Source of the DNA: Escherichia phage APECc02
Length of the DNA: 64,000 nucleotides
Sequence record: NC_041869.1
Direction: 5' to 3' (one strand)
The notes beneath the pieces were generated by a model. It was not told the DNA's origin, made no database searches, and saw only the letters and a program-made list of their open reading frames with translations. The position numbers and the translations under genes are program-made. Position 1 is the stretch's first letter. The number at the start of each line of letters is the position of its first letter. Shown here one piece after another: positions 3,688 to 53,103 of this stretch.

Positions 3688-3696
3688 GTATCCCCC

Positions 3697-3918: not shown

Positions 3919-3966
3919 AACATTTTATGAGGTAACAATACCACGTCCGTGTGGTTATGTCAATGA

Positions 3967-4437: not shown

Positions 4438-4561
4438 TTTTCATACTCTCCAGTTTGCTCATAACTAACCCGATCAACAACACTGCATAGTGTGGTTATG
4501 TAGGTGCCAATTGAAAAACCATCATTCAATTGGCTACCGTTACCTACTAAACCATCCTACA

Positions 4562-6439: not shown

Positions 6440-6472
6440 AACAAGTAAAGCCGGGTAATCCCGGCCATGTTG

Positions 6473-7186: not shown

Positions 7187-7199
7187 TAAAGGTCTCCTT

Positions 7200-7961: not shown

Positions 7962-7969
7962 AAGTGTCC

Positions 7970-8320
7970 TCAGTAGATGTTTTGTTTAATCTCTATTCCA
8001 AACTTTTTAAACGAGTCAGCTGCAAGCATGAATTTACGAGCCGCTGATGGGTTAGAAGTATGCACGAAAATCTTCACGTTGTCAACTACAGGAGGCTTAC
8101 CAAATACAAATTTTTCCTCTAGGATGCAGAAGCAATCGTATCCTTCAAAAATTTCTCCCAAGTCGCTGTCAAAATGCCACTCAGAAACTCGTCTATAAAG
8201 CTTTCTCTTGTCATTGATGAAATCCATAAACTCAGAAGAGTTCTTCAGCCAAAGAGCATCTTGGAGCCCGTAATTTGACGGATCTCTCAAGTCATCCAGC
8301 CACACAATCAACTTCTTCAT
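7970..8320 (-). CDS. hypothetical protein
   Basis: 116-aa ORF packed between the Sir2 gene and the RNA-ligase-like gene. Confidence 0.45.
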   Translation of the reverse strand: MKKLIVWLDDLRDPSNYGLQDALWLKNSSEFMDFINDKRKLYRRVSEWHFDSDLGEIFEGYDCFCILEEKFVFGKPPVVDNVKIFVHTSNPSAARKFMLAADSFKKFGIEIKQNIY

Positions 8321-34343: not shown

Positions 34344-35012
34344 ATGGCTGTAGCTTATCCTACAATACCAATTCCAGATCTTGAAGATGCAGAAACAGTC
34401 CTGAGTGATGACTTCTTGGTTGTCAACCAGACTGATGGGACAAGAAAGGCTAAGATTGACGATGTTGTCAACGATCTTAGCATTACTAAGATAGTCTATT
34501 TCACAGAAGGTGGTTATCTTAAGAGCAAGAAGGACTTTGCTTATGACCCAGAGACTAAGCGCTACTACACGTGGAACGGGGATTATCCTAAAATAATCCT
34601 ACCAGACTCCACTGTAGAGGGTGCTGGGGGCGTGTCTGCAAATGCCTGGTCTGTTTTTGGTGAGCTTGCTGCAACTTCTTCTGGCAGAATAGTTGATTAC
34701 GGATCTATCGGTGGTCAGCTTGATATGGATCTTGAAGTTGCGGATACCTTTAAGGTTCGACTAACTTCAAATACTACAATCTCTTTTGAAAATCAAACAG
34801 AAGGTCTTGAAGGGGTGGCGAGAACTATAACCGTATGCATTACTCAGACCTCTGGCGGCAACAAAGTCTATTGGCCTGGTAATGTTAAATGGTCCTACGG
34901 AAGAGATCCTATCCTAACATTTACAGCTGGTGCAACAGATATTTTCAAGTTGGAAACCTACGACAACGGGTTAACTTGGTACGGGGCACTGATTATCGCA
35001 GGAGCTATCTAA
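34344..35012 (+). CDS. short fibre or anchor-domain protein
   Basis: 222 aa; first ~110 aa parallel the N-terminus of the 1479-aa fibre (shared DDFLVV.Q.DGTR.AKI.DVV ... EGG ... AY ... W.G..P ... GG ... AW pattern). Confidence 0.5.
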   Translation: MAVAYPTIPIPDLEDAETVLSDDFLVVNQTDGTRKAKIDDVVNDLSITKIVYFTEGGYLKSKKDFAYDPETKRYYTWNGDYPKIILPDSTVEGAGGVSANAWSVFGELAATSSGRIVDYGSIGGQLDMDLEVADTFKVRLTSNTTISFENQTEGLEGVARTITVCITQTSGGNKVYWPGNVKWSYGRDPILTFTAGATDIFKLETYDNGLTWYGALIIAGAI

Positions 35013-35013
35013 G

Positions 35014-37611
35014 ATGCGTATTCAACATAACATTGATAACGTATTTCAGATGATTGAGGGGCACAGGAAGTGCCTCGATAACAACACAGGTATTACCAAC
35101 ACCCCTACACAAAATAAGCTAGTAAACCCTGATGGTCTTATAGCTGCAGGGTGGGCAGGTAATAAGATAAATAATGATTGGGCAATGCATGAGTCCCAAG
35201 CTGTGTTGATTCTGGGATACATTGAAGCATACAGGGCATCGAAAAGCGATTTCTATCTGGATAGGGCAAAAGATGCTTGGGAAGCTTACAATAGCCATCT
35301 TCTGGGTGCATATGCAGTAGAAAGTAAAATGCAAAGATTGTCCCACTACCCTCTATCCACAGATGGGGTTCCATCACATGGTGGGTTTAAAGATGTGGTG
35401 GTGTCTTTTACCAACGGTAGAGGAAAAATCCCAGCTGGATCTCCGACATGGGGGGAATACCTTGACAAGGCATTCCAAGCGTATAACGGTGTGTTAGGAA
35501 GAAACACTGTAGACTCTGATGTTTACGGTGGCACAGATGCTAACCCAGATTGGACAACATCCGGATTAAGTTGGTGGGTTGAGTGGTACATAGCATGGGA
35601 TGGTAACCGCTATTGGGCTAACGGTAGCATAGCCGACAGTGGTCATACGTCTGTAGAGTTCGGCACAATCCAATTACAAGATAAGGGTGTTACAGGAAGC
35701 CACAAGGTAACCTATTGTGTGAGATTACCTCAAGAGCAAGGTGGATCGGTGATACCTGCAGGATCCCCTGTAATTGTAAATCCCATAAACGTGGTTGCAG
35801 ATAATCAGGCCCCAGAGTTGGACGGGGAAGAAATGTGGTGTGACGCTTGTTATCAACTCTACACCTTGACAGGTGAGGAAAAGTATTACACCGCGTTTAA
35901 ACAGTCTTACAACAAATTGCTTAATTTCAGTGATATAAACGCCTACGACAAACTGTTTAGGAAGACCACGTTGATTAAGGCACCGTTTACAGATGGTACT
36001 TGTCTTGTTGCAGGAACAGTTCCTGTCATGAGCAGGGACAGTGACGGGTATATCAATTTTAGAATGAACGCACGCCAGCCTTGCGAAATAATTCAAAAAG
36101 GGACTACATACAAAATAGGCAGAGATGCTGAAATTGTTATGAATTTCGGAGGAGAAGGGGTTCTGTTCCAGCCACATTTCATCCTTAATGATGGCAACAA
36201 TAACAAAAAACAGTACAGGATAGGGGTTCCTTTTGGAGGGGCAGGGGTAACAGAAATAGTTGCCAAGGTTACTGATTTCGTAGAGGTAGTTGGTAAAGAC
36301 GGTAATCCGTATCTCTTACCTAAAGAGGAAAACATTGCCGTAAGCGGTGGTGCTGGTGTTAGTATGCAGTATGATACCGACATCTACAACCACTCTGACA
36401 ACTTCACCCGTTGTAATATAGCAAGAGGTAAAGTAACTTTCAATTTTGGAAGAGAGATTTCTTTAAACTCAGTAACTTATCGATCAGATGATGAGATGGT
36501 AAGGGTCAAATTTCTTGACAAAGATAGGTGGTTATGGTATGCTGATCTATATGCCACTAATGGACAATGGATAACAGAAACTCTTACTCTAGGAGACTTC
36601 AAACTAGATCCGACACAACCTCATCACACCGAAGAAGAGATTAAACCTTTCTTTGCTAATCCTAAGGGGCTCACCTCTGTAGATTTCAGCCTAAGCGACA
36701 GACAGATAGGTAATGGCTTGTTTGATCTATATTGCGTCAACACACTGCCGCAATTTTATATTGCAGATAGGGATGCTTATCTAATCTGGTTTAGCGTATG
36801 GATGGCAAGCAAGACAGAATCAACCGCTAAGGTTGGCGATTGCTATGTCAGAAACTACAAGCAAGGTGCATACAGGCACACACCAGGTGTGTTCCCTGCC
36901 GGAAAGGTGATAGATAAGGAAAACTATCTCTTAGAGGAAAAGCCAAATTGGCCCTACCCTGGCATGCAATACCCAGCAGTATACTGCATGGGTGCAGAAA
37001 ACATAGATCGCCATAGATTGTCAAATACAATAGGCTTTCTGTATGACGCTCAAGTCTGGTATAATAATACATTTAAGACAGAGGGTCCAGTTGCCTCGCG
37101 TTATGTATGGCAGAGAGGTAATGAAGGGCTGACTGGTTGGTGGGAGATGGTAGATAACTCTAAGCTCCAGTCAAGATCTTTTGTTGCTGCGTGCCGCACA
37201 ATCTATGAGCTCAAGAAACATAAAGAACCTGTTGATGAAAGATTATTCCTGTTCTGCCAGAAATGGGCATGGTTCCTCAACAGATTCCAGTCATCTCATT
37301 CAGGAAATCTACCTACAGACTTTAACACCTCTGGGGGATATTCTTATCAGGACAGAGGAGACAGGATGTGGGTGGTAGGTGAATGGCTTGCAGGTTGCTG
37401 CTGGCTAGGTCTGTGCGGGTATTCAGAGACAATACCTCAAATAGATATTGTTGTAGAGGCCTGTGTGAAGCTACTGCAAAAGCACCACTTCATTAATGGG
37501 GATAATGTTTTAAACGGCTGCTGGGCAGTTTCTGATCCGGTTGGCTATCACTCTGGCGAAATCCTTCGCGGTCTGGGCCTTTATGCTCAATACCGTGGAT
37601 TGTACCTTTAA
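35014..37611 (+). CDS. large hypothetical tail protein
   Basis: 865-aa ORF, Trp/Tyr/Gly-rich, followed by a GC hairpin. Confidence 0.45.
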   Translation: MRIQHNIDNVFQMIEGHRKCLDNNTGITNTPTQNKLVNPDGLIAAGWAGNKINNDWAMHESQAVLILGYIEAYRASKSDFYLDRAKDAWEAYNSHLLGAYAVESKMQRLSHYPLSTDGVPSHGGFKDVVVSFTNGRGKIPAGSPTWGEYLDKAFQAYNGVLGRNTVDSDVYGGTDANPDWTTSGLSWWVEWYIAWDGNRYWANGSIADSGHTSVEFGTIQLQDKGVTGSHKVTYCVRLPQEQGGSVIPAGSPVIVNPINVVADNQAPELDGEEMWCDACYQLYTLTGEEKYYTAFKQSYNKLLNFSDINAYDKLFRKTTLIKAPFTDGTCLVAGTVPVMSRDSDGYINFRMNARQPCEIIQKGTTYKIGRDAEIVMNFGGEGVLFQPHFILNDGNNNKKQYRIGVPFGGAGVTEIVAKVTDFVEVVGKDGNPYLLPKEENIAVSGGAGVSMQYDTDIYNHSDNFTRCNIARGKVTFNFGREISLNSVTYRSDDEMVRVKFLDKDRWLWYADLYATNGQWITETLTLGDFKLDPTQPHHTEEEIKPFFANPKGLTSVDFSLSDRQIGNGLFDLYCVNTLPQFYIADRDAYLIWFSVWMASKTESTAKVGDCYVRNYKQGAYRHTPGVFPAGKVIDKENYLLEEKPNWPYPGMQYPAVYCMGAENIDRHRLSNTIGFLYDAQVWYNNTFKTEGPVASRYVWQRGNEGLTGWWEMVDNSKLQSRSFVAACRTIYELKKHKEPVDERLFLFCQKWAWFLNRFQSSHSGNLPTDFNTSGGYSYQDRGDRMWVVGEWLAGCCWLGLCGYSETIPQIDIVVEACVKLLQKHHFINGDNVLNGCWAVSDPVGYHSGEILRGLGLYAQYRGLYL

Positions 37612-37646
37612 CATAGGGGGCTGTTTGCCCCCTTTCAGGAGAAAGA

Positions 37647-40600
37647 ATGGCTGATATTAAAGTTGTCAGAATCGAATCTCTTCCTGCCACTACCGCAGTG
37701 ACAGAGGATGATTACCTGGTTGTTCAACAACCAGACCTGACCCGTCGTGTAAAAATTGGCGATGTTGTCCATGTGGATGGGACTGTTTCTCATGTAATCT
37801 CCTTTAAGGAAGGTGGTAAGTTAAACGGCCCAATGGATTTTGCCTACTTCGAAGAGGAAGACCTCTACCTGCGTTGGAAAGGCGAATTTCCACACACTGT
37901 TCCTGCACTATCTTCACCGTACTCCGATGGTGGGATTACTGACGCTGCATGGATGGTATATACAGATCCGTCCTTAAGGGAGGAGCTGGAATCTACCATT
38001 GGCGCATCTATGATCATGACAGCCGAAGGGCAGTCTGTCCAGGATGTAATGGATGTTACTGTTCAAACAGCTAACGATGCTAAAGCACTTGCACAGCGTG
38101 TGGATTTTGGTACAGTGCACACTGTAGGTGATGTTATTCACCTTGATAACTTTGTAGGTCCTGCAGTTATTGAAGAGGGAAGAACCACCAACTACCCTTC
38201 TGTAGCAGCTGGTGAAAAATTTCTGAACGGTGTGGTATCTCGTCGTGATACTACAACTGTTGATGGTATTTTCCGTGGCGCTACCTCCGGGGCCATGTAT
38301 ACCATTGCAGTAACCAATGGTGTAGCAACAACAAAAAGAATAGCACTTCGTGATGAATTTAAACGCCTGGAGGCAAACAGCCCAACAAGAACAGTTATCC
38401 GTGCTGGAGATGATTTAAACACGGCAGGGTACTTGCAGCTTGATGCAACAGGCCGCTGGGGTATGTGGAACCAACAAACAGCCTCGTGGCAACCTCTTGC
38501 TATAGAGCAAGGCGGTACAGGAGCCAGGGATGCCGCAGGTGCACGTATTAACTTAGGGGCTTTCTATAAGCAACGTGCAGCCCTTGAGCCAAATTTCAAT
38601 ATCAATAACTTGACTGGTAATCAGGATGGTGTATACTACCAGCCGATGACTGCTTATGCAACCGAGGCAAATGGTTACCCTGCAGGTTCTGGTGCTGGTC
38701 ACTTGATTGTTTGGCAGAACAATGCTAACGGCGGTACAGGTTGTCGTCAGGAATACTATCCATTCTCTAACGTAGATGTTTGGTATTTGAGAACCTATCA
38801 AGCCAACACAAACCAGTGGACTGCATGGCAGCCGATGGTCAGACCTCGTAACGATGATACCTTTAGATCGCACATCGGTCTCGGGTCTAGAAATTCCCCT
38901 ACCTTCGGGCACCTTTACCTGTCTCAAAGTTCTGCTGATGTTAAGTCAGCATCAGGTATTGTTAACGGGGACAAATACAGCGCTGACGGTGTCCTTGAGC
39001 ATGGTTATAGGATCTACTCTGAGGTAAGAAACGACAATAAGGCTTGGTTGACAATCCACCTGCACAAAGGTGCAAAAGGATCTGAAACCCATAGATATTT
39101 AGGTTTCCGCGAAGACGGTGTATTAGACTGCCCTAAATACATGCAGGTTGGGGATCTTACTGGTCAGCTGACAAACTGGGGACTTGGAGAGTGGATACGT
39201 AGTTCAGGAGCAGAAAGAGGCTTCTGGGGATCTAAGAAAGCCGCCAAGATGGTTATCTGGGATGGCGGGATGGACGAATCCGGTAACGGCACTCTGGAAT
39301 GGGGTGTTTATAACAACCGGAAGGCCAAGTGGGAACCTCTACCTCAAGCCGCAGGTGGCACCGGGGCTACAACTCTAGTAGATGCTCAGAATCTGTTCAA
39401 AGTTCCTATAGCAGCAGGTGTGAAAGACTTCTTAACACTGCCAAGAACCGCAGGGATGGAAGATGGGAAATACTACCCGATCATCGTTAGAACAGATCCG
39501 TACTATGCTCCAGCAACTGGTACTGATATTACCATAGTTACCAGATCGTCATCTGGAAATGACCCTATGAACTGTGCTACCTTACAGTGTCACTATAGAA
39601 CTGGTGGTTGGACAGACAGAGGAGACTCTTTCTACGGGGTAGTAAATTTCTACCAGAATGAAAAAGCAATTCTTGGGATGGTTGCTCCAACAAGGGGTAA
39701 ACAAGAATATGTTGCTTTCTATGCAGAGGCGCGTGCTTTCCCTGTCAGCATATACGCAAGTAGAAATGTTGTCGAGGTGTTTACCAGGGAGCAAGATTAC
39801 CAGGTTGGCTCTGTAACAGACAATCAGGACGGTGTTAAGTTCGTTGCACCTCTCCAGTCAGCAGATTTGAATCTTGCTGTTCTTGGAGATAATAATACCA
39901 ACACCAGACCTATTGTTGACTTCAAAGGGACTTCAGGGTTCTACACTGGTGGCGGCACACAGTGGCACTATATAGGCACTGCTGAACGCTATGCTGTGAT
40001 GAGCAAAATGAATATGCCAAAAGTCGAGCTATGGGCAGACGGTCTTGACTATTTGTGCTACGGCAGTCCTAGAAAGGCGTTATTCTCTAATGCAGGCTTC
40101 CAGTGTGCATCAGATGGGACAGAGGATCTGACTAACGGTACGTTTACCTCTAAATGCGGTAATGGTGCTGGTCTCAAAGGTCAGGCAGAGTTCAGATCTA
40201 CTCCAGAGGCTGGTCAAGTTATTGTTCGTGATGTTGTAGGTTCTGCTCACAGATTCTACAACTTCAACAAAGATGGCACTTTCTCAGCTCCTGGTGGTTT
40301 TGTATGCCACACAGGTGCAGACTGGAACAACCAGTTCGGGAATAACAACCCTTCTAAAATAATGGCTGGTAACGTCAACGGACCTGAAGGTTCCATGGTT
40401 GTAGCAGGGTTGTCGGTTGGTTTTTCTGGAAACTACGCTTTCCAGATGGCAGGTCGTTTAGACCAGCTGTATACTCGTTCCATAGAGCAGGGAAACCACA
40501 GAGCGTGGAACAAAGTTATTCAGCACCGTGGTCAAGGGTTGGGAACTAATGACCTTAACGACTACAAGGCAGATCGTGAAGGGATTTACCATCAAGAGGC

Positions 40601-42086
40601 AAATGCCAACGCCACAGCGGAAAGAAATTACCCACCAGGACAGCAGATGGCTGGTACGCTGATCGTTCTTAGAAACTCCGCTAACGAAGGAACAGGTTGT
40701 ATCCAGATATATAAAATGTATCTTGGTGGAACATGGGAAAGGTATTACAATAACCTTGGCAGCGGAATGGCTTGGAGTCCTTGGAAGAGAACAAGCTTCC
40801 CAGAAAACACAACTGCTCCAGTTATGCCTGACTTGTGGTTGCCTTTAACCTCTAACCTAAAACCTGCATTGGGTGAAGGTGAGATGGTCTTCTCCAGACC
40901 TTCCACAGCAACCTATTTCACTAAGCGGGGTGTTATGGCTGTTGCACAAGCAAACCAACCACGTTTTGAAAGAGATGGGTTGCTTATCGAGGGGCAAAGG
41001 ACAAACCTCATGCTCAACAGTGAGGACCCAAGCAAGTGGGGTGCACAGCAAGCGATTACTGTCGGTAGCACTGTAACAAATACTAACGGCACAAAAGGCG
41101 CAAGATTTACAGTAAACACCACATCCGGTGTAGAAACAACAGCGTTAAACCTTGCCACTGTTCCAGCCACTAGGGGTGCCGATGTGACAGGTGCTGAGAA
41201 ATTCTGTACTGGGTCTATTATTGCAAGGGGAGGTAAAGCGAACCAGAGATTACGTGTAAGATTCGACATGTATGACGGATCCACCACAGTATTCCAAGGT
41301 GACGCTTATGTTAACCTGTCAACACTTGAAGTTAAAACAACAGGGGATGCAGCTGGGAGAATTAAAGTAAAAGCTGAGAGATGGCAAACAGCCGGACCTG
41401 CTTGGGTAAGGATTGCCGCTACGTTTGAGGCAGCGGCCTCTGACAAGAATATCGGTTGCCAGTTCCAGATTGCCCCGCCGGAGAGTTCTCAACATGCCGT
41501 AGGGGATTGGGTTGACGTTGCAATACCTCAGTTTGAGTTGGGATCTTGTGAGTCCTCGTTTATCCCTACAGGGTCTTCACCTGTAACCAGGGCGGCAGAT
41601 CTTTGTAAATTTCCAATGACGGATAACCTAGCGCCCAGACCGTTCACTATCGCCGCTACGGTTGATGCCAACTGGAGAGGCTGGGGCAAAGCTCCTAACG
41701 CAGCTCCTAGGGTTATTGATACAGAAGGTCATCAATCCGGTGCTGCATTTATCATGGGGTTTGGCTCTGCAACAAATATTGCAGATGATGGTTATCCATA
41801 CTGCGATATTGGTGGGTCAACCAGACGTGTCTATGAGATGGCTAAAGCGCGTAAATTGAAGATTGGGTTCAGGATAAAAGGGGACGGTAAAACATGCTCT
41901 TTTGCTAATGGATTGGTAAGTACGGAAACACAGTCTTCTTGGGAGTTCCTGGCAGGAGGCGCTTTCCTCCGCATTGGTGGTAAAACGGCGACAGGTGAAA
42001 GACACCTATTTGGTCATATTAAGGACATAAGAGTTTGGAACTCTGCGTTGACAGATACTCAACTCATGATGGGGAGTGTTGAATAA
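37647..42086 (+). CDS. large tail fibre protein
   Basis: 1479 aa; N-terminal anchor shared with 34344-35012; two copies of the fibre collar-like motif (WQPLAIEQGGTGARDAAGARINLG and WEPLPQAAGGTGATTLVDAQNLF); internal duplicated ~70-aa segment. Confidence 0.65.
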   Translation: MADIKVVRIESLPATTAVTEDDYLVVQQPDLTRRVKIGDVVHVDGTVSHVISFKEGGKLNGPMDFAYFEEEDLYLRWKGEFPHTVPALSSPYSDGGITDAAWMVYTDPSLREELESTIGASMIMTAEGQSVQDVMDVTVQTANDAKALAQRVDFGTVHTVGDVIHLDNFVGPAVIEEGRTTNYPSVAAGEKFLNGVVSRRDTTTVDGIFRGATSGAMYTIAVTNGVATTKRIALRDEFKRLEANSPTRTVIRAGDDLNTAGYLQLDATGRWGMWNQQTASWQPLAIEQGGTGARDAAGARINLGAFYKQRAALEPNFNINNLTGNQDGVYYQPMTAYATEANGYPAGSGAGHLIVWQNNANGGTGCRQEYYPFSNVDVWYLRTYQANTNQWTAWQPMVRPRNDDTFRSHIGLGSRNSPTFGHLYLSQSSADVKSASGIVNGDKYSADGVLEHGYRIYSEVRNDNKAWLTIHLHKGAKGSETHRYLGFREDGVLDCPKYMQVGDLTGQLTNWGLGEWIRSSGAERGFWGSKKAAKMVIWDGGMDESGNGTLEWGVYNNRKAKWEPLPQAAGGTGATTLVDAQNLFKVPIAAGVKDFLTLPRTAGMEDGKYYPIIVRTDPYYAPATGTDITIVTRSSSGNDPMNCATLQCHYRTGGWTDRGDSFYGVVNFYQNEKAILGMVAPTRGKQEYVAFYAEARAFPVSIYASRNVVEVFTREQDYQVGSVTDNQDGVKFVAPLQSADLNLAVLGDNNTNTRPIVDFKGTSGFYTGGGTQWHYIGTAERYAVMSKMNMPKVELWADGLDYLCYGSPRKALFSNAGFQCASDGTEDLTNGTFTSKCGNGAGLKGQAEFRSTPEAGQVIVRDVVGSAHRFYNFNKDGTFSAPGGFVCHTGADWNNQFGNNNPSKIMAGNVNGPEGSMVVAGLSVGFSGNYAFQMAGRLDQLYTRSIEQGNHRAWNKVIQHRGQGLGTNDLNDYKADREGIYHQEANANATAERNYPPGQQMAGTLIVLRNSANEGTGCIQIYKMYLGGTWERYYNNLGSGMAWSPWKRTSFPENTTAPVMPDLWLPLTSNLKPALGEGEMVFSRPSTATYFTKRGVMAVAQANQPRFERDGLLIEGQRTNLMLNSEDPSKWGAQQAITVGSTVTNTNGTKGARFTVNTTSGVETTALNLATVPATRGADVTGAEKFCTGSIIARGGKANQRLRVRFDMYDGSTTVFQGDAYVNLSTLEVKTTGDAAGRIKVKAERWQTAGPAWVRIAATFEAAASDKNIGCQFQIAPPESSQHAVGDWVDVAIPQFELGSCESSFIPTGSSPVTRAADLCKFPMTDNLAPRPFTIAATVDANWRGWGKAPNAAPRVIDTEGHQSGAAFIMGFGSATNIADDGYPYCDIGGSTRRVYEMAKARKLKIGFRIKGDGKTCSFANGLVSTETQSSWEFLAGGAFLRIGGKTATGERHLFGHIKDIRVWNSALTDTQLMMGSVE

Positions 42087-42418
42087 TGAATATTTTTACC
42101 CTTGGATTCACTGACAGGGAGGACTTTAACGGTTTCATGGATGAAATCGGCTTTTATGAGAATGAGGTGTTGCAAAACACCCTTCTTGTAGAGGTTGTCG
42201 GGTTCATTTACACAGAGACTGGAGACACTTATGAGGCCGAAGATGAATTTGGCAACATGGTTGTCTACCCGGTTTGCGAGAAAAGTGAATTGTTTTATGT
42301 TAACGTTCTGGCTCTGGACGAGGATGCAGAAAACATCGTCTCTAAAAGCGGAAAAGTTGTAGATCCGATAAGGTTGAACATGTTCGACCCATCAGTATCC
42401 ACCTTGGAAGCACTTTAA
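42086..42418 (+). CDS. hypothetical protein (possible fibre-associated)
   Basis: 110-aa acidic ORF overlapping the fibre stop, followed by a terminator. Confidence 0.4.
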   Translation: MNIFTLGFTDREDFNGFMDEIGFYENEVLQNTLLVEVVGFIYTETGDTYEAEDEFGNMVVYPVCEKSELFYVNVLALDEDAENIVSKSGKVVDPIRLNMFDPSVSTLEAL

Positions 42419-42425
42419 AGTATTG

Positions 42426-42450
42426 CCCTCGCTTCGGCGGGGGTTTTTTG
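42426..42450 (+). terminator. rho-independent terminator
   Basis: ccctcgc-ttcg-gcggggg hairpin plus TTTTTT. Confidence 0.8.
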
Positions 42451-42516: not shown

Positions 42517-43107
42517 ATGTTTTTATGGGAAAGGCCTAGATACCTTCCAGATATTAGATTAGAGTTGCTGGCAGATATTGTCACGTTTAAAAGTCCGTTT
42601 ACAGGTAAAACGCAAAAAGTAACCTATGCCACGCCTAACTGGAAAGGCACTTTGACGGTCTCCAATATCAGCGAGTCACAGTTACTAGAGCTTAAGAGCT
42701 TTGTTGATCAGGTGTATAAAGATGGGAACATCTTTCTTATTAAAACTTACGGTCACTCGGTAACAGCTAACGAGCCAATCGCCCTTGGGCCTACTGGTAA
42801 CGACGATTTTTTGAAGACTGTTGGGTGGGAGCCAAACAGAGACATAGCCAGAGCCGGGGATAAAATATCTGTCAATGATGAATTGAAAGTGGTAACAGCT
42901 CCAGTGCGTAGCGATGGTGTTGGGTCTGCTGTTATAGGCATATCTCCAAGACTTAGAAAACCTATTGCCGCAGGGGACACCATGAAGATAATAACTCAAT
43001 CTCCGAAGGGTAGGTTTCATATCAGAGATATTTATAAAATTAAGCAAAAAGTCGATGCTATGCAAAAAGGTGATAATATAGTTATCAACTTCTTTGAGGA
43101 TTTCTAA
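42517..43107 (+). CDS. hypothetical distal tail protein
   Basis: 196-aa ORF, first of four tightly overlapping genes before the 1199-aa protein. Confidence 0.4.
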   Translation: MFLWERPRYLPDIRLELLADIVTFKSPFTGKTQKVTYATPNWKGTLTVSNISESQLLELKSFVDQVYKDGNIFLIKTYGHSVTANEPIALGPTGNDDFLKTVGWEPNRDIARAGDKISVNDELKVVTAPVRSDGVGSAVIGISPRLRKPIAAGDTMKIITQSPKGRFHIRDIYKIKQKVDAMQKGDNIVINFFEDF

Positions 43108-43660
43108 GATGATCAGAGCGCCATTAGATAATTTATTTCTTGAAAAGCTGGAGCTTGATGGTGTTGAGATCTTAATTGCTGCAAAGCTGGAGCTACCGAC
43201 AGGAACTGTCAGGGTGTGCTCAGGCACTGGTGTTGTAGTAATTGAGGGGCAACATTTTATAGGGATAGGTGGATCAGCAACATTAACCGCTGTGTCTGAG
43301 AAAGATGCCACCAACTTCGGATCTGTGGTAGCGACATTGAACGGGTTTGATCCTAAGTATGTGGGTGATCTGCTAAAGACTGAGTATTCTGGTTGTCGTG
43401 CCACGTTGTACATTACCGCTATGGAGAATGGTCTGCCTGTTACAACTAATGGCTTGTTTGACGGCCTTATAACAGATATGGCTATTCAGACAGGTGAGAA
43501 TAGCGCTTTGTCCATATCCATCTCTTCCATCTTTAACAGTTGGTTAAGAGGTTTTCCTTATCGGTACACGGAGGAAAGCCACAGCTCAAGAAACGATAAT
43601 GACAGATTTTTTAAATATGTGGATCAGGTGGCGAGCCGCCCGATCATTTGGGAGGTTTAA
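43094..43660 (+). CDS. hypothetical distal tail protein
   Basis: 188-aa ORF overlapping both neighbours. Confidence 0.4.
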   Translation: MRISKMIRAPLDNLFLEKLELDGVEILIAAKLELPTGTVRVCSGTGVVVIEGQHFIGIGGSATLTAVSEKDATNFGSVVATLNGFDPKYVGDLLKTEYSGCRATLYITAMENGLPVTTNGLFDGLITDMAIQTGENSALSISISSIFNSWLRGFPYRYTEESHSSRNDNDRFFKYVDQVASRPIIWEV

Positions 43661-44085
43661 TGAGCACACACCCTCGTTTAGTGGATTGGCAAGAAAGATT
43701 GTGGAAAGTGTTTGACGAAGAGGCCACCATACCTTTTGAATGGGGATTCCACGATTGTTGCACCTTTGCAGCTAAGTGTGTTGATGCCCAATACGGAACA
43801 GATTTTCTTTCTAACTTCGAAGGAACGTATAAAACAGAGTTGGAAAGCAAAAGATGGTGCATGCTTCGTTTCAAAACTACACACCTGCCTACTATTTTTG
43901 ATCTCTTTATGACTCGACTGGATACTCCTAAACAGGTTCAGCGTGGCGATATTGTTATTTTCGAAGGTCTGAACGGGCTCACCGCTGGTGTGTTCTGGAA
44001 CAACCAGATTTGGGCGAAAGGTGATAAAGGGGTCTTTATGTTCGACATGAAAGATTCTATCGTTGTTGATGTCTGGAGGTATTAA
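43660..44085 (+). CDS. hypothetical protein, possible NlpC/P60-like cysteine peptidase
   Basis: ATG at 43660 with GGGAGG RBS; FHDCCTFAAKC could carry a papain-like catalytic Cys. Weak. Confidence 0.35.
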   Translation: MSTHPRLVDWQERLWKVFDEEATIPFEWGFHDCCTFAAKCVDAQYGTDFLSNFEGTYKTELESKRWCMLRFKTTHLPTIFDLFMTRLDTPKQVQRGDIVIFEGLNGLTAGVFWNNQIWAKGDKGVFMFDMKDSIVVDVWRY

Positions 44086-47000
44086 TGCCAATTGCAATGA
44101 TTGATAACATCGTTGCTTCTGCAAGATCTTCAAGTTATGACTGGAACGCATCCAAGGCAGCTCTGGCTGACAGCCTGAACACTGTGACCACCAGAACTTT
44201 GGATAAGATTTTTGAGGGCAACAAATCTTACAGAAGTCAGCAAGATAGACAAAAGCTTCTCAGATCTTCTGCTGCACCTTGCTCTGTAGTGTATGGAAAG
44301 ACACGCACATCTGGATTGCTTGCGTTTTTGGAGCAGGATAGCGACAGAACCCTCCATTGTGCTATTGTTCTTGCCAATCACCCTCTGGAAGGTATAGAAG
44401 ATATACTTATCGACGGTAATCCTATTTCCTCGTATGGAGATCTGGTATCGTGGGAGCTACATAACGACAGAAAAACATCTGATCCTTTCATGGGTACACA
44501 CTGCCCATCATGGTCACCTGACATGATAGGTAGAGGGATCAGTTGGCTACGTGCCAGCTTCAGGTTTGACCCTAACAAGTTTCCTTTTGGGTTGCCAAAC
44601 GTTACACTCGTTAAGGTTGGTAAAAAATGCTATGATCCTCGCATCAGTAAAGAGGTGTATACCAATAACGCGGCCTTGGTGATTCTAGACTATTTAAGAA
44701 CGTACCTTAAATGTCCTGACGAAACCATCAACTGGGAGTCCTTCAAGGAGGCTGCTAACATATGCGACGAGGCGGTAAAAAACGCAGACGGAACCAGTGA
44801 GCGCCGATACACCATTAATGGCGAGTTTGACATGGACGAGGCTCCGGCAAGCATTATGGCAGAAATGCTGAAAGCTTGTGGCGCAGATCTCAGCTATGTA
44901 GCTGGTAAGTATGGTTTGCTGGTTGGTGCATACTATGGCCCGGCAACAATGACGCTGAGTGAGGATTGTGTCTGTGGTGAGGTCAAGATCTATCCGGAAG
45001 CCTCATTTGACAAAAGATCCAACACAATAACTGGCAGATTCACTAGTCCGACCAAAGGGTATTCTGAAACAGATTTTCCATCAGTGTTTGTCCCAGAGTG
45101 GATAGAGAAGGATGGAGAAAGAAAGATAATCGATATAGACTATCGCTTTGTTACCAGTCCTTATCAAGCTCAGCGTGTTTCTGCAATCTTCCTAAGACGT
45201 GCCAGAGCTGGCAGGATTATTGAAGTCACCTGCAATATGCGAGGTTTCAAATTTAAACCTGGTCGTTACGTTACAATGGACCTCCCAAGTATTGGTATAG
45301 TGGGCCAAGAAATGAGAGTTCTTGAATGGGAGTTTACCAAAAAGGGTGGTGTCAAGGTAAAACTTCGTCAAGATGCTAAAGAGTGGAATGATGCCACAGG
45401 ACAACTTCCGGATTCTGGCGATGTAGATATTCCAATATCTCCATCTGGTGTAGCTCAACCGCAAAACTTCAGATATTCCGTTCTCCAAGCTGGAGAAGTA
45501 ACTCACGGTGTTTTGGCTTGGGACAACGTTGGGACCTACGCTCAAAATATTGTGCAGGTAAGAAAGAACGGAGAGATTGTTTGGACAGCACAAACAGTTG
45601 AGCAGTTTGTCCGAGTAGAAGGCTTGACCAAAGGGTCATACACAGCAACCGTGGTTGCAACATCTTATAAAGGTGGCGTATCTCCGGAAGCATATTGTGA
45701 GTTCAACATTCAGGCACCTGAAGCTCCTGTTTCTGTGGAGGTTAAACAGGGATACTTTGCTATTACCCTGATCCCGCACAGCAGAGACTTGGCTAGTGTA
45801 AGCACCCAGTACGACTTTTGGACATCTGGGATGACAAGATTGCCAGATACCAGTGATGCAACCGTTACTTCAAAAGCCACTCGTATGGGTGTTGGTTCAA
45901 CTTGGACATCTGAAGGTCTGCAGAACGATAAGATTTATTACTGGTATATCAGGACAACAAATGCTTTTGGTTCATCTGCTTTTGTGGAGTGTGCAGCCCA
46001 CTGTTACACATCCATAGAAGATCTTATGCCACAGATTGATGCTGAGTTCAAAAAGACAGAGACTTATAAAGAGCTTACCGCCAATCTTGATAATGCAGTC
46101 AAGGAAATGGATAAAAATGTTGGTGCAGTCAATGACCGTGTTACTAGCATTTTTGAAGAGCTTGGGGATACAATAGAGGGTGTTGTCAGAGAGACGACAG
46201 AAAAATTTACAGGGGTTAATGGAGAAATTTCTGCCCTTAACAGTAAGCTGGTAGCAGCTCAGCAATCCTTTGACGATAAACTTGCAGCAGAGTCTGGTAG
46301 GCTTGGGTCACTAATCGAGACAACAAATAGATCAACCGTTGATCTTGTTAATCGTAAAACTCAAGCATTGAGTGAGCAAATAACTGCAACGCAAGGTACT
46401 CTGCGGGAAGAGTTGAAGAACACTGAGAGCAAACTTAACTCCTCTATTCAAGAAACCAACAAGGCAACAACCGATCTGCTAAATAAGACAACGGAAGCTA
46501 TTAAGCAGGATCTGGTGGCAGCTACAGGGAAGATCACCAAGCTGGAAGATGATGTGCAGAAAGAGGTTGCCAATCTGCAAGCATCTATTCAAGAAACTAA
46601 TAGTACAACAGTTGATCTTGTTAATAATACAGCCACAGCGATCCGTCAAGAACTTACCTCTGCAAAACAAGAAATTGTTGACGAAATGGGTAATATTGAT
46701 GAGCTCAGGGCTACAGTATCTAATACCTCTAAAGCTGTAACAACACTTGAGGGTAAAATAGATGCTCAGTGGGGAGCTAAGATTCAGGTAGACTCCGCAG
46801 GGAATAAATATGTTGCAGGTATCCAGCTGGGGATGGAAGGATCTGGGGGCCAAGTTCAATCCTACTTCATGGTTAGTGCAAACAATTTTGCGGTATACAA
46901 CCCCGGAAATGGAACAGCAACCCTTGCTTTCGCAATCAAGAACAACCAAGCGTTCTTGAAAGACGCTTTTATAGAGAATGGCACGATCTCCTCTGCCAAG

Positions 47001-47684
47001 ATCGCACAAGAAATTTCGTCAAACAACTACGACGGCAACGGGTACCATAAATACGGTTGGTATATTAACAAGAACGGGCACGCCCAATTCATGGATGTGT
47101 GGGTGAAAGGCAACATCAACGCCAGTTCTGGTAACTTCACAGGGGCAGTTAACGCCACTAGTGGTACCTTCCGTGGGGATGTTTATGCCAATAATGGTAG
47201 CTTTAGAGGCACCATAGATGCAACCGGAGGTACCTTCCGTGGTCGTGTAGAGGCTTCTGTTATCCGCGCTAACCAGTTCGAAGGTGCAATTGTTGCACAC
47301 AGGACTTACGGGGATTGTGCCCCAGTATATAACTCCCAGCAAAGGGTTTGCCGTTGGAGGTGGAGATACGTAGATAACGTTTCAGGTCAGGGTAAGAACG
47401 TAACATTCTTCTTTAAACTGAATGGTACTCTTGCCAGCTCCCAACTGAATGCATGGATAGCTGGTCATCAGATCCTTGCTGGCAAGAAGTATTTTAACGA
47501 CAACAACGGCATGTGTGCGGTAGGGATAACAGGTCTGGGTGAACAAACTATAGACATTGTTATCGAGATTTACACACCGTGGTCAACGTCGAGCGTGACA
47601 GGTGTCACAATCTCCTGTCCTACTGTGATAGTAAGTCGTTCAAACTCTAGCTTCCAGGGACCTTGGAACGAGTCTCACGACTAA
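44085..47684 (+). CDS. large tail tip / host-specificity-like protein
   Basis: 1199 aa; three tandem repeats (ETTNRSTVDLVNRKT, QETNKATTDLLNKTT, QETNSTTVDLVNNTA) in a coiled-coil-like region and C-terminal GNFTGAVNATSGTFRGDV...GGTFRGRV repeats. Confidence 0.55.
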   Translation: MPIAMIDNIVASARSSSYDWNASKAALADSLNTVTTRTLDKIFEGNKSYRSQQDRQKLLRSSAAPCSVVYGKTRTSGLLAFLEQDSDRTLHCAIVLANHPLEGIEDILIDGNPISSYGDLVSWELHNDRKTSDPFMGTHCPSWSPDMIGRGISWLRASFRFDPNKFPFGLPNVTLVKVGKKCYDPRISKEVYTNNAALVILDYLRTYLKCPDETINWESFKEAANICDEAVKNADGTSERRYTINGEFDMDEAPASIMAEMLKACGADLSYVAGKYGLLVGAYYGPATMTLSEDCVCGEVKIYPEASFDKRSNTITGRFTSPTKGYSETDFPSVFVPEWIEKDGERKIIDIDYRFVTSPYQAQRVSAIFLRRARAGRIIEVTCNMRGFKFKPGRYVTMDLPSIGIVGQEMRVLEWEFTKKGGVKVKLRQDAKEWNDATGQLPDSGDVDIPISPSGVAQPQNFRYSVLQAGEVTHGVLAWDNVGTYAQNIVQVRKNGEIVWTAQTVEQFVRVEGLTKGSYTATVVATSYKGGVSPEAYCEFNIQAPEAPVSVEVKQGYFAITLIPHSRDLASVSTQYDFWTSGMTRLPDTSDATVTSKATRMGVGSTWTSEGLQNDKIYYWYIRTTNAFGSSAFVECAAHCYTSIEDLMPQIDAEFKKTETYKELTANLDNAVKEMDKNVGAVNDRVTSIFEELGDTIEGVVRETTEKFTGVNGEISALNSKLVAAQQSFDDKLAAESGRLGSLIETTNRSTVDLVNRKTQALSEQITATQGTLREELKNTESKLNSSIQETNKATTDLLNKTTEAIKQDLVAATGKITKLEDDVQKEVANLQASIQETNSTTVDLVNNTATAIRQELTSAKQEIVDEMGNIDELRATVSNTSKAVTTLEGKIDAQWGAKIQVDSAGNKYVAGIQLGMEGSGGQVQSYFMVSANNFAVYNPGNGTATLAFAIKNNQAFLKDAFIENGTISSAKIAQEISSNNYDGNGYHKYGWYINKNGHAQFMDVWVKGNINASSGNFTGAVNATSGTFRGDVYANNGSFRGTIDATGGTFRGRVEASVIRANQFEGAIVAHRTYGDCAPVYNSQQRVCRWRWRYVDNVSGQGKNVTFFFKLNGTLASSQLNAWIAGHQILAGKKYFNDNNGMCAVGITGLGEQTIDIVIEIYTPWSTSSVTGVTISCPTVIVSRSNSSFQGPWNESHD

Positions 47685-49291: not shown

Positions 49292-49978
49292 ATGGCAGAG
49301 ATTAAGTCGGATGTTAACCACATCCACACTCTGCCAGATTTTGTTCAGGGGGGTCTTGACTACCTGCCTGGAGATTTTCTGGCTGAGAAGGTTAATTTAG
49401 TCACATTCTTAACCGTATACCTTAAAAGGTTGGAGGATGTTGATAAGATGCTGGTAGGTTTGGCTGAAGGAAGATTGCTTAACAATGCCAGCGGAAGATA
49501 CCTTGACGAAGTTGGTAATCAACTTGGTATTCTTAGGAATGGACTTTCAGATGCTGATTTTCGTGCCACACTAATTATTCAGCAGGCCGCAGCATCAAGG
49601 GGCGGGACTCGCGAAGATGTCATCTCCACCTTGCGACAATTGTTCGGAAGAGACAATTTCGATACGTGGAAAGGAGACAACTTCAGGTTTGACATAAATA
49701 TTAGAAAAACTTGCTTTGACATATTGCAGTCTATAGATCAGATCTTAGATATGCTACCATTGCCTTGTCATTTGCGTCTTACAGAATCGCAAGGGCAAGC
49801 TTTTGGTTTTGAAGGGGACTCTACAGCTCTTGGCTTCGGATCAGTGTGGGAAGAAAACCAATTCGGAGTTGGTGGGCTGGCTACTTTGCTATATGTTCCT
49901 GACGTAAGACCTGATTGGGACACCACAACCATTTATTGTGAAAGTATTACAGTAAACGCAACTAGACAGGAGGGTTAA
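49292..49978 (+). CDS. hypothetical baseplate protein
   Basis: 228-aa ORF; stop overlaps the next start. Confidence 0.4.
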   Translation: MAEIKSDVNHIHTLPDFVQGGLDYLPGDFLAEKVNLVTFLTVYLKRLEDVDKMLVGLAEGRLLNNASGRYLDEVGNQLGILRNGLSDADFRATLIIQQAAASRGGTREDVISTLRQLFGRDNFDTWKGDNFRFDINIRKTCFDILQSIDQILDMLPLPCHLRLTESQGQAFGFEGDSTALGFGSVWEENQFGVGGLATLLYVPDVRPDWDTTTIYCESITVNATRQEG

Positions 49979-52050
49979 TGGCAACAGCTGTTTTTAAACC
50001 TTACCGTGATTACTCTACAATGGCTGCACAGTTTCACTACCGAACAGTTCAGGATACTGCCGTTCCTGGTAGGGATTATAATCATGTTGAGGGCGATGTA
50101 ACTATCCCAATTGGGGCAACCAGTATTGAGATCCCCGTGGAAATTGTTGACAAATTACCCAACAGGTTACCAAGAAGCTTCTTTATGGAGTTTTCATCAA
50201 AATCTCAAGGGGTGATGATTGGGACACAAAGGGCGAAATGTACAATAGTTTCAGATGAGAATCTTGACAGGATATCCTGGGATACTGTTGAGGAGAGAAT
50301 GTTTCACCCAAGATATTGGGTTACAACCACTCAGCAGACTGAAAGTACCTGTATTGTTGCAGATGACAACTGTTGTATTAACCGTTTAGTGTCAAGAACA
50401 TATGGAGGTATGGCTGGGTGCATTTGGGAAACAGTTGACAAGTATGACCATTTCGGTATTGGGTTTGATGATCACTATGAGATGAGAAACACCAAGCTTT
50501 GGTTCAGAATGTCAATAACCAATGCCAGCAACTTCTCCACTCCTGAAAAGATGATTATGACTGTAGACCTTGTTGATGGCACAATCATCTATGTTCCTTT
50601 AGCTCAATATGCTGTCAGCATCTCAGAGGATAAGAATGTTGCAGAGATTCATATTGATTTCGAGGACTGCGTCGGGATGGATCAGAACAACAACATGATG
50701 GGTGTTGATCCTCGGCAGGTGAGAAGGATTTTAATACCGCTTATGCCTAAAGACTGGGTAAGTAATAGCACAGACCCGAGAACGGAAAATGTAGAGTGTG
50801 AGTTGCGCCTAGATCTGCTTCAGCCAGACACGGGCTGGAAAATGATGCAACTTAACAATATTCAGGTTAAAGAGCACGACGTCGGGATCTGCACCGCATA
50901 TGACGATATGTGGAACGTATCTCCTTTAAGGGTGTTGAACAATATCAAGCGTCTGGGCTATACCGGAACCATAAACCACTATGTTGGTATGAGTCATTAT
51001 TATGACTACACATGGTCAGGAACCCAATGGTCTATAAACAGAACAGGGGCGCTAAACGCTGCAGCTTATAAATGGCATGATGATTTTATGTACAATGCCA
51101 AACGACACAACTTCGACGTTATGCAGTCTGTAAGTTTTGAGCTTTACAGCGATGCCTGTCCGTTGGAATGGACCCAAAGAGACTGGAACGATAACTACGC
51201 TAAAACAGGGTATACACCTTGTAGCTACCTCCTGTCTCCAACCATTGAAGAGGGTATGAATTTCCTTACGGCAGTATTTAAGAATTTTGCATCAGCCGCT
51301 ATGAGAAACAACCTGCCAGTGATTATGCAGGTTGGTGAACCGTGGTGGTGGTTCAATACCGATACTCGTAGACCTTGTATTTATGATTACCCTACAAAAC
51401 AGGCGTTTTATGATGAGACAGGTGAGTATGCATTAGATATTGGGACTATTGACGATCCTAAAACTGGCGGTGTTTACGACAAGTATGTAGCATTTTGTCG
51501 TGGTAAGCTTGGCGCTCGTATTGCGGCTATTTCAAAGGCAATAAAGGCACACGCTGCATCAGCTCAGATGACAGCTTTACTGTTTTTCCCAACTATTATG
51601 GAAACCGAGCTTACGCAAAAGCTGAACCTTGCCGACCAATATAAAAAAGAAGCAGGTGCTCTTGATTTCTTCTGCACCGAGTGCTACGATTGGGTGATGC
51701 AGGGAGGTATTGAAAAGGCAAAAGAGTCTGTAAACATACCTATCGTTAAGTTAGGTTGGCAACCGTCTGAAATACAATACCTTGCAGGGTTCGTTCCTAG
51801 TAAAGAGCTTGCTCCGGTATATGGCTACGACCCAACCAGGAATTACCAAGAATTTTTATGGAGATGTATTTGCGGAAACATGGCAACTATAGAGTATAGA
51901 TATCCTGAGGTAAAACAGTATGTGTGGGCATACCCGCAAGTAATGTCTGACAGCATCACTGTTACCGCTAGAGATTCTACCGTGCTTCATATGGGGCAGG
52001 TTGCTCTGAAAGGGTATGTAGAAGATGTTGTCCCGCCAGACTTCTCATAA
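49978..52050 (+). CDS. large tail protein, possible glycoside-hydrolase-like domain
   Basis: 690 aa; Trp-rich segment MQVGEPWWWFNTD reminiscent of TIM-barrel glycosidase active-site regions. Speculative. Confidence 0.4.
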   Translation: MATAVFKPYRDYSTMAAQFHYRTVQDTAVPGRDYNHVEGDVTIPIGATSIEIPVEIVDKLPNRLPRSFFMEFSSKSQGVMIGTQRAKCTIVSDENLDRISWDTVEERMFHPRYWVTTTQQTESTCIVADDNCCINRLVSRTYGGMAGCIWETVDKYDHFGIGFDDHYEMRNTKLWFRMSITNASNFSTPEKMIMTVDLVDGTIIYVPLAQYAVSISEDKNVAEIHIDFEDCVGMDQNNNMMGVDPRQVRRILIPLMPKDWVSNSTDPRTENVECELRLDLLQPDTGWKMMQLNNIQVKEHDVGICTAYDDMWNVSPLRVLNNIKRLGYTGTINHYVGMSHYYDYTWSGTQWSINRTGALNAAAYKWHDDFMYNAKRHNFDVMQSVSFELYSDACPLEWTQRDWNDNYAKTGYTPCSYLLSPTIEEGMNFLTAVFKNFASAAMRNNLPVIMQVGEPWWWFNTDTRRPCIYDYPTKQAFYDETGEYALDIGTIDDPKTGGVYDKYVAFCRGKLGARIAAISKAIKAHAASAQMTALLFFPTIMETELTQKLNLADQYKKEAGALDFFCTECYDWVMQGGIEKAKESVNIPIVKLGWQPSEIQYLAGFVPSKELAPVYGYDPTRNYQEFLWRCICGNMATIEYRYPEVKQYVWAYPQVMSDSITVTARDSTVLHMGQVALKGYVEDVVPPDFS

Positions 52051-52062
52051 TCAGGAGATAAA

Positions 52063-53103
52063 ATGTCAAAACCTAGTTTTCCATTAGAGATTTGGGCAGA
52101 GGAGGATCAGGTTCTGCCTAACACCCACAGACAGAACAGGCTACGCCCGATTGATGATTTGTGGAGAAAAGGTTGGGATCTTGGTCAAAAGCCCTCATGT
52201 GAAGAACTTAACTATATTTTCAATATGCTCGGGACTTGGGCAAAATACATTGCTGACGAGCAGATCCCCGCTCAAGAAGGCCGTTATCTGGTACGTGATA
52301 ATAACTTGAGCGATCTTTTGAACATCCCTGTTGCCCGTAGAAACCTTGGGATTATCACTAAGGAAGAGGCAGACGCCAGGTATGTAAAAGTTACAGGTGA
52401 TACAATGACAGGCCCCTTGGGGTTGCAACGTATCAACTTTAAAGCTGCCGAGACAGATAAGGCTTGGATAGAGACAACTATTGGCCCAGATAAGACAACT
52501 CTCGACTTTGGGTTAAGTGATAATACCGGGTCGTTTGATGATGGTGGTACATCTACAGTGGATGCGTTCCGTTGGAGATTCCAGCCAACTCAGCCGGATA
52601 TTAATCCAGAGTTCACTTTGATGTACCTTAACGCGATCACGGCTAACCGTGCGCTGTTGAAAGTGGTAGGCAATGTTGAAGTTGTCGATAACATGAGGTG
52701 CAATAACCTTACTATCAGCAATACAGCGACATTCACCAACTGTAATGTGGCTAGTCAGTTGACGGCTGGGTCAGTGTATGTTAATGGTGGTGCAAGTTGT
52801 GACAGTATGGTTGTAAGAAGCCAGCACTGTGTTGTCGGTAACAGAAATGTGGTTCGCTCTGTGAACGGAGTGACGGCTAACGGTAACGGTGATGTAACGA
52901 TCACTATCCCGCAGACAGGTGTGCAAGACATCAGAATCGGTGCAAGACTTGTGGACGGAGTTTCTGAATCTCCAATCCGCAACGGCTACGTTGTCACAGG
53001 CTGGCATTTCGGTGACAAAAAAGAGATGCGTGGTTCAACCTACTGGGCAGGACCTTTACAAAAACTTGTAAATGGTCAATGGATCACTGTTAATTATGCA
53101 TAG
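52063..53103 (+). CDS. tail fibre protein (paralogue 1)
   Basis: 346 aa; collar-like motif ARRNLGI...EADARYV...GDTMTGPL; C-terminus YWAGPLQKLVNGQWITVNYA; followed by a Tfa-type chaperone gene. Confidence 0.7.
   Translation: MSKPSFPLEIWAEEDQVLPNTHRQNRLRPIDDLWRKGWDLGQKPSCEELNYIFNMLGTWAKYIADEQIPAQEGRYLVRDNNLSDLLNIPVARRNLGIITKEEADARYVKVTGDTMTGPLGLQRINFKAAETDKAWIETTIGPDKTTLDFGLSDNTGSFDDGGTSTVDAFRWRFQPTQPDINPEFTLMYLNAITANRALLKVVGNVEVVDNMRCNNLTISNTATFTNCNVASQLTAGSVYVNGGASCDSMVVRSQHCVVGNRNVVRSVNGVTANGNGDVTITIPQTGVQDIRIGARLVDGVSESPIRNGYVVTGWHFGDKKEMRGSTYWAGPLQKLVNGQWITVNYA

Follow-up and report, generated by a model that had tools for sequence, protein, structure and literature searches.

In phages CBA120 and G7C, several receptor-binding proteins of one phage (TSP1-4 in the former, gp63.1 and gp66 in the latter) have a small common N-terminal module that is followed by diverse bodies. 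A similar design is found in the tail genes of Escherichia phage APECc02, an rV5-like coliphage of the genus Vequintavirus. The window, that is, the whole stretch of 64,000 nucleotides analysed here (NC_041869.1; one strand, 5' to 3'), encodes a 222-residue protein, p222 (34344..35012), and a 1479-residue long tail fibre, p1479 (37647..42086), whose N-terminal regions are alike; the gene of an 865-residue tail protein, p865 (35014..37611), lies between them. These genes and their parts, as well as the p110 gene and the hairpins described below, are on the + strand, and the open reading frames (ORFs) of p222 and p1479 were confirmed at exactly these coordinates. p222 is 100% identical to rV5 ORF43 (gp43) and to bas54_0025 of phage Bas54 (MaxBurger), p865 corresponds to rV5 gp42 and bas54_0026, and p1479 (phrog_6578) is an allele of rV5 gp41. 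All three rV5 proteins, gp41, gp42, and gp43, were detected by mass spectrometry of virions (PMC3606486). The original prediction held that p222 and p1479 carry the same N-terminal anchor domain and dock with it to the same baseplate site.

The N-terminal regions align over residues 8-105 of p222 and 7-105 of p1479, with 38 identities in 99 positions (38%; BLASTP, E=3e-18). All of the motifs on which the original prediction was based (DDFLVV.Q.DGTR.AKI.DVV, EGG, AY, W.G..P, GG, and AW) lie within this alignment. Both proteins match the Pfam domain PF18668 (Tail_spike_N; Tail spike TSP1/Gp66 N-terminal domain; gathering threshold, 25 bits), which is located near the N-terminus, before the body: the match covers residues 51-105 of p222 (41 bits, E=2.1e-10) and residues 46-103 of p1479 (40.5 bits, E=3.1e-10). 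A search with the module profile revealed no third copy among the 328 ORFs of the window in all six frames. The existence of a shared N-terminal attachment module is borne out by this homology, by the match to a curated domain, and by recurrence of the module in related phages.

The module is composed of two parts: a lineage-specific anchor peptide of about 45 residues and a generic PF18668 neck. The anchor peptide comprises residues 1-45 of p222 (MAVAYPTIPIPDLEDAETVLSDDFLVVNQTDGTRKAKIDDVVN; 34344..34478) and residues 1-45 of the fibre (37647..37781), and the neck comprises residues ~46-105 of p222 (34479..34658) and of the fibre (37782..37961). Anchor-peptide profiles were built leaving out each phage in turn. 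The profile lacking the window sequences matched p222 (E=1.3e-10) and p1479 (E=8.3e-10), and no other protein of the window. In phi92, gp140 (2.5e-22) and the endosialidase gp143 (1.5e-9) were matched, and in 4MG, 4MG_049 and the colanidase-like 4MG_047 (~1e-15). In these profile searches, the number of anchor bearers per phage was exactly two in the rV5-like, 4MG-like, and phi92-like phages. Since phi92 gp140 and the adaptor of the phAPEC8-like phages retain the anchor peptide and lack PF18668, the first ~45 residues are likely to be the docking determinant, with PF18668 serving as a generic neck.

Sequence relatives of the neck in the PDB are Sf11 gp13, CBA120 TSP1, TSP3, and TSP4, and G7C gp63.1. 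The CBA120 and G7C systems differ from the window in that they use a carrier tailspike with T4 gp10-like docking (XD) domains, none of which was detectable in the window by Pfam. Furthermore, the module of the window is preceded by the ~45-residue anchor peptide, which is absent from solved structures; a profile search of the PDB gave one chance match, to an enoyl-ACP (acyl carrier protein) reductase. The best PDB match of the neck in both proteins was Sf11 gp13 (PDB 9occ; PMC12724387; E=1.2e-10 for the fibre). As in the window, a short docking element of Sf11 gp13 leads into a PF18668-like domain and then into the body: residues 4-59 dock on the distal tail protein (Dit), and the PF18668-like stretch is at 67-124 (PMC12724387). 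However, docking in Sf11 is by a helical bundle that contains a siphovirus Dit adaptor helix, whereas the rV5-type anchor is unrelated to it in sequence and belongs to a contractile-tail baseplate. Bas63 (Felixounavirus) also resembles the window, having two fibres with a structurally conserved N-terminal binding domain (PMC12609058); it should be mentioned that the tail genes of rV5 are annotated as Felix O1-like. The Bas63 domains lack sequence similarity and dock at a gp9-like platform and at wedge 2A D2, respectively, whereas the window modules are 38% identical.

The C-terminal part of p222 (residues 109-222; 34668..35009) forms a knob. In the AlphaFold2 (AF2) model, this knob is a beta-sandwich with predicted local distance difference test (pLDDT) values of 80-88, resembling tumour necrosis factor (TNF). 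The best Foldseek match was the capsid spike of Pa223 (9ny6; E=1e-4, probability 1.0), with a template modelling (TM) score of only 0.31 over the whole 222-residue model. The alignments for structure prediction were shallow, as the word-indexed homologue searches yielded only close relatives (4, 8, and 6 proteins), and no match was obtained between the knob profile and PDB chain sequences. p222 is a small stub consisting of anchor, neck, and TNF-like knob, and is probably trimeric. Pa223 gp52 (9ny6) has the same plan: ~40 residues at the N-terminus serve for attachment and are followed by a trimeric body and, at the C-terminus, by a knob with the TNF fold (bioRxiv 10.1101/2025.06.11.659172). 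The same likeness was pointed out for gp140 by the phi92 authors (PMC13450770). It differs from p222 in being located on the threefold axes of the capsid and in having a triple beta-helix in place of the PF18668 neck, and no p865-like partner of it has been described.

An exhaustive HMMER search found the knob module in 4033 clusters among 1.84e9 representatives. Among the 150 best clusters, the knob is the extreme C-terminus in 132, the protein is 300 residues or shorter in 85, and a combination with PF18668 occurs in only three. A search for related loci with the single knob recovered rV5-like contigs only. The BASEL label of p222, "sialidase domain protein", was rejected: PF18668 was the only Pfam match, and sialidase folds appeared in Foldseek at E>6. 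A second knob, considered at the C-terminus of the 586-residue protein described below, was also rejected, the match not being significant within the window (E=1.4).

The knob protein is associated with p865. A knob-protein gene lies directly upstream of the gene of the p865 homologue in 10 of 10 lineages, with a spacing of -35 to +12 nucleotides: rV5-like phages, Seunavirus 4MG, Phapecoctavirus, phi92 (gp140/gp141), Erwinia Kolesnikvirus, Vibrio phages, podophage 7-11, Rosemountvirus, jumbo Seoulvirus, and a Burkholderia prophage. The carriers include myo-, podo-, jumbo, and temperate phages, and the N-terminus of the small knob protein varies among the 10 lineages. With the cassette defined as VOG5264 plus VOG1347 (phrog_7760/9017 plus phrog_2871), the knob was found in 524 and p865 in 523 of 50,697 phage records, and the genus counts of the two were nearly identical. 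p865 was classified as an (alpha/alpha)6 barrel and is glycosidase-like. Sequence searches of Pfam and the PDB gave no match for p865 and no recognisable attachment module in it. The family has invariant acidic residues in an alignment of seven sequences. p865 may have an enzymatic activity. p222 would be a stub adaptor that carries p865; in other words, it is considered to be the partner of p865 and not a stand-alone receptor-binding protein, a relation that was missed by the original prediction. In the temperate, beta-proteobacterial prophage of Burkholderia vietnamiensis (4567-8736), the cassette adjoins the integrase gene; the knob protein preceding the p865 homologue is longer there (473 residues) and contains a SPRY domain.

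Small particle-bound adaptors carrying a separately encoded glycan-degrading protein are known from the K1E/K1-5/SP6-type phages and the T4 gp9/gp10 platforms, and an analogy with K1E/K1-5 was drawn for the L-shaped fibre I of phi92 (PMC13450770). These adaptor systems differ from the window pair, to which they have no sequence relationship or detected fold relationship: the adaptor of the pair has a TNF-like knob, and its presumed cargo is an (alpha/alpha)6 barrel, not a beta-helix tailspike or sialidase. No description of a cassette of a knob adaptor and an (alpha/alpha)6 enzyme was found in the searchable literature. The shared-anchor design is ordinary for modular receptor-binding proteins; the gene-pair cassette and the pattern of two anchors per phage are what is added here to existing knowledge.

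Functional data are available from HIDEN-SEQ, a transposon study on Bas54/MaxBurger, in which bas54_0025 is identical to p222, as mentioned above, and bas54_0026 shares 99.2% identity with p865. Only 7 of the 47 TA dinucleotide sites of bas54_0025 were hit in the saturated reference library and the gene was classified as "Essential", while bas54_0026 (94 of 189 sites) and the fibre gene bas54_0027 (154 of 238) were both "Intermediate". According to the HIDEN-SEQ authors, disruption of the latter two is tolerated on E. coli K-12. After liquid competition on K-12, the fibre mutants were nearly gone (~7 of 238 sites with reads) and the p865 mutants were reduced (~35 of 189); the adjoining bas54_0028 retained all of its sites. 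The essentiality of p222 and the dispensability of the fibre speak against an interchangeable occupancy of one site by the two anchor bearers. As a separate observation, the surviving insertions in the p865 orthologue after liquid competition clustered within the 5' and 3' thirds of the gene (Bas54 3505-6105), and ~50 TA sites without reads in its middle (record 21374-22031) correspond to part of a beta-rich insert. For the fibre, no insertion remained in the first 453 codons and seven beyond them in the same competition; this difference was borderline (Fisher p=0.054) and was not used.

The fibre itself contains repeated segments, which were exposed by splitting the sequence; a BLASTP search of the intact fibre against itself gave the identity match only. 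Repeat A comprises residues 266-331 (38442..38639) and 547-610 (39285..39476), with 37% identity (E=4e-6). The two GGTGA motifs noticed earlier, and labelled collar-like there, were recovered at residues 289 and 570, one in each copy of this segment of about 65 residues. The duplication of the YP.G..AG.LIV..N.AN.GTGC.Q.Y pattern is real as well (E=1e-9) and somewhat longer than the roughly 70 residues originally proposed. This repeat B comprises residues 318-455 (38598..39011) and 969-1118 (40551..41000), with an 83-residue core at 37% identity (E=2e-11). It may be knob-like: the sole PDB matches of its profile were the R2 (6ct8, E=0.04) and R1 (6cl6, E=0.22) pyocin fibres, in the Knob2 region.

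The second copy of repeat B coincides with a recombination junction. The fibre is ~97% identical to rV5 gp41 (1272 residues) up to about residue 900, the identity decays across this copy, and the two proteins are unrelated from residue 1049. Residues 1049-1479 (40791..42083) form an exchangeable C-terminal receptor-binding cassette, which contains a region similar to the RcGTA head-spike fibre (6tb9, E=4e-7) and a concanavalin A (ConA)/lectin-like end (weak Laminin_G_3 match). These 431 residues were found at an identity of at least 90% in only 34 records. Another 185 relatives, which cover ~96% of residues 1049-1479 with identities of 27-46%, are found as lateral or side tail fibres in T1-like, Dhillonvirus, lambda-like, and T5-like siphoviruses. 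The fibre of the T1-like phage swan01, for example, is 44% identical to the cassette (E=2e-118), and the 92-residue product of the gene 3' of it matches p110 (E=2.6e-12), a 110-residue protein of unknown function (phrog_1361) encoded immediately after the window fibre (42086..42418). The p110 gene is absent from rV5 and MaxBurger, the carriers of the other fibre allele. p110 travels with the C-terminal cassette, and might be a fibre assembly or accessory factor.

The break relative to rV5 gp41 and the cassette shared with siphoviruses strongly support the view of the original prediction that the fibre is modular and built by recombination, and this is already known for the class. In the RBPseg paper, the fibres of EmilHeitz/Bas49 and MaxBurger/Bas54 are assigned to class TC12, which has permutable pseudo-domains, a "pyocin knob", and a duplicated mobile domain, and in which the head is swapped: a peptidase-S74 end alternates with a lectin-like head, seen in EmilHeitz at low resolution with cryo-electron microscopy (cryo-EM) (PMC12143355). 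The window fibre belongs to TC12, being of the EmilHeitz/Bas49 type with the lectin-like head. In R-type pyocin fibres (PMC6116203), knobs that bind saccharides are arranged in tandem and the tip is lectin-like, an organization that the window fibre appears to share. As far as the accessible text of these two papers goes, the module shared with the 222-residue protein is not discussed, and this protein is not among the annotated fibres.

These observations slightly favour a model in which two translationally coupled tail-appendage units, p222 with p865 and p1479 with p110, use a common attachment module. The anchor formed by residues 1-45 would most likely touch the periphery of the baseplate. 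p222 would be a fixed, essential component of the baseplate, a short and probably trimeric stub, and its distal knob would most likely hold p865, in which no attachment module is recognisable. p1479 would have the same anchor in cis, on a long shaft that comprises the two repeats with GGTGA together with two knob domains of the pyocin type, and that ends in the exchangeable lectin-like tip. Because both proteins carry the same anchor, they are expected to dock in the same manner, and the chance that they do so at two equivalent but distinct positions in each sextant of the baseplate seems to be about even, this being the arrangement favoured here. In the cryo-EM structure of phi92, fibre I stands on top of the C-domain of the wedge protein gp145, with fibre II at its base; no assignment could be made for the proximal arm of fibre I or for fibre II, and gp141 was not considered (PMC13450770).

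Several points weigh against this model. Carrying p865 cannot be the only or main role of p222, because the p222 orthologue is essential and p865 is dispensable on K-12; p222 itself must have a necessary part in assembling or triggering the baseplate, or else its loss must remove several appendages together. The evidence for binding of p865 by the knob is indirect. The pairwise distances of knob and p865 are correlated (Mantel r=0.60, reached in 41 of 20,000 permutations), a signal partly due to the close pair of phi92 and Schickermooser, and no fusion of the knob with p865 was present among ~160 sampled proteins. Some metagenomic knob proteins carry three to five tandem knobs in 1400-2000 residues. 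The knob does not seem to be a dock exclusively for p865, since its metagenomic family (4033 clusters) is probably broader than that of p865. Confidence in the p222 model is low for its N-terminal half (pLDDT <50). No gp9/gp10-like platform was found by Pfam in 17 tail proteins of the window, a search that a divergent platform could escape; no docking partner was found, and the anchor peptide is in no solved structure. In addition, low-resolution cryo-EM of Bas49 and Bas54 (PMC12143355) and of phi92 (PMC13450770) assigned neither p222 nor p865.

The binding of p222 and the fibre to one identical baseplate site, by competition, alternation, or mixed occupancy, was the weakest claim of the original prediction, and is now distinctly improbable. 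The anchor peptide and neck are the same in both proteins, and the three fibre densities described for Bas49 and Bas54 at low resolution, compared with nine annotated fibre genes (PMC12143355) leave room for sub-stoichiometric occupancy. However, both proteins are present in rV5 virions (PMC3606486), and the fibre, which tolerates disruption, is no substitute for the essential p222. The two-protein pattern is kept in three genera, which suggests two dedicated positions, and the homologous binding domains of Bas63 offer a precedent for the use of different wedge sites (PMC12609058). It is unlikely, too, that the assembly is branched, with one anchor bearer on the baseplate and the other hanging on it through the homologous N-terminal modules. 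p222 might, for instance, be the essential platform for both the long fibre and p865, much as fibre II of phi92 is attached to fibre I. A hub whose loss removes several appendages would fit the essentiality of p222 and the individual dispensability of p865 and the fibre; the joining of the unassigned fibre II to the base of fibre I in phi92 (PMC13450770) and the attachment of PF18668 tailspikes to other tailspikes in complexes of the CBA120 and G7C type (PMC8825819) are also consistent with it. In contrast to those complexes, T4 gp10-like docking domains were not detected by Pfam in the tail proteins of the window, nothing indicates that the module binds homotypically, and p222 has only ~220 residues with which to bind three partners.

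A third reading concerns the gene pair: p222 might be an independent short fibre, receptor-binding or structural, with its knob directed to the host or the sheath, while p865 attaches by itself and the genes are adjacent only through co-regulation or co-function. TNF-like knobs commonly serve as receptor-binding heads at the distal end, the Pa223 spike was proposed to bind the host (bioRxiv 10.1101/2025.06.11.659172), and p222 is essential though p865 is not and no fusion proteins were found. This reading nevertheless seems rather unlikely. The knob and p865 are conserved together across myo-, podo-, and jumbo phages, and the N-terminus changes with the type of particle; a constant knob and p865 with a variable N-terminus is the pattern expected if the knob interacts with p865 and the N-terminus adapts the pair to the virion. 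The invariable closeness of the two genes in all 10 lineages and the lack of a recognisable attachment module in p865 point in the same direction, that is, to p222 as the adaptor of p865. A broader proposal, made tentatively and with somewhat less than an even chance of being right, is that of a portable two-gene appendage occurring in ~1% of sequenced phages: a trimeric adaptor whose TNF-like knob holds an (alpha/alpha)6-barrel glycan enzyme, the first ~45-160 residues of the adaptor being swapped for each virion, so as to borrow the anchor of the main fibre of that phage. If this is true, gp140-gp141 in phi92 and gp43-gp42 in rV5-like phages would account for the unassigned fibre density at the baseplate periphery, and the essentiality of the adaptor would mean that the appendage is built into the assembly or trigger network of the baseplate.

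For therapy and biocontrol, the rV5-like and phi92-like phages are candidates with a broad host range. Which of their fibres is built by which genes could not be told in the BASEL study of 2021, the RBPseg study of 2025, or the phi92 cryo-EM study of 2026. The two-anchor pattern, with an essential stub having a glycosidase-like partner and an exchangeable large fibre, provides testable assignments for the unassigned densities. When new receptor-binding tips are engineered, the part to be retained would be the ~45-residue anchor and not the Pfam domain.

The three genes lie just 3' of the genes for the tape measure, tube initiator, hub, spike, and sheath initiator. The 7.7-kb region is 95-97% identical in nucleotide sequence to those of nomine, JeffSchatz/Bas55, EmilHeitz/Bas49, FFH2, and others, and the fibre gene alone is 96-97% identical to those of nomine, JeffSchatz, and EmilHeitz. 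The stop and start codons are joined as TAAGATG at 35010-35016 (p222/p865) and as TAATG at 42084-42088 (p1479/p110, the p110 gene overlapping the fibre stop codon). Read from the DNA alone, these junctions indicate two translationally coupled gene pairs. The fibre unit seems to be closed by an intrinsic-terminator-like hairpin with a T-run at 42425..42444 (eight pairs, six of them GC; tail TTTTTGTTTG). A GC-rich hairpin with six GC pairs (GGGGGC-TGTTT-GCCCCC; 37616..37632) is located after the p222/p865 pair, ahead of the fibre gene; it was rejected as a canonical terminator, having a TTT tail only and not being reported by the terminator scan. GenBank contains 23 MG0656xx records under the name "Campylobacter phage", with C. 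jejuni as the host, whose identity to the 34344-42086 region is 95-100%; these are probably mislabelled or contaminant assemblies.

Downstream of the fibre unit, a siphovirus or lambda-like tail-tip module is located inside the myophage baseplate cluster (42517-47684). It encodes a Dit-like protein of 196 residues (phrog_1302), a gpL-like protein of 188 residues (phrog_2048), a DUF6950 protein of 145 residues, and a gpJ-like protein of 1199 residues (PF09327, PF24489); HIDEN-SEQ classed the orthologues bas54_0028-0031 as non-essential or intermediate. A 690-residue fibre (49978-52050) combines an N-domain of the N4 gp65-type "non-contractile tail sheath" and a TIM barrel (PF23844, PF23845) with a Calx-beta domain. 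On K-12, the 99% identical orthologue in Bas54 is essential, in agreement with the recognition of enterobacterial common antigen proposed by BASEL. The 586-residue protein (55449-57209) is a mosaic, in which the N-terminus shows 46% identity to that of the phi92 colanidase gp150 and the C-terminus 48% identity to that of phi92 gp151; gp151 shows a weak match to the knob profile (E~1e-3). In the RBPseg study, a fibre head of Vequintavirus was seen joined to an unassigned density (PMC12143355). Two paralogous short tail fibres (52063-53103 and 54118-55161), 43% identical to each other, are homologous to phi92 gp147, which was described as Mu-fibre-like by both the phi92 paper and BASEL. The first of them is followed by a Caudo_TAP assembly protein, and the Bas54 orthologues of both short fibres are essential.

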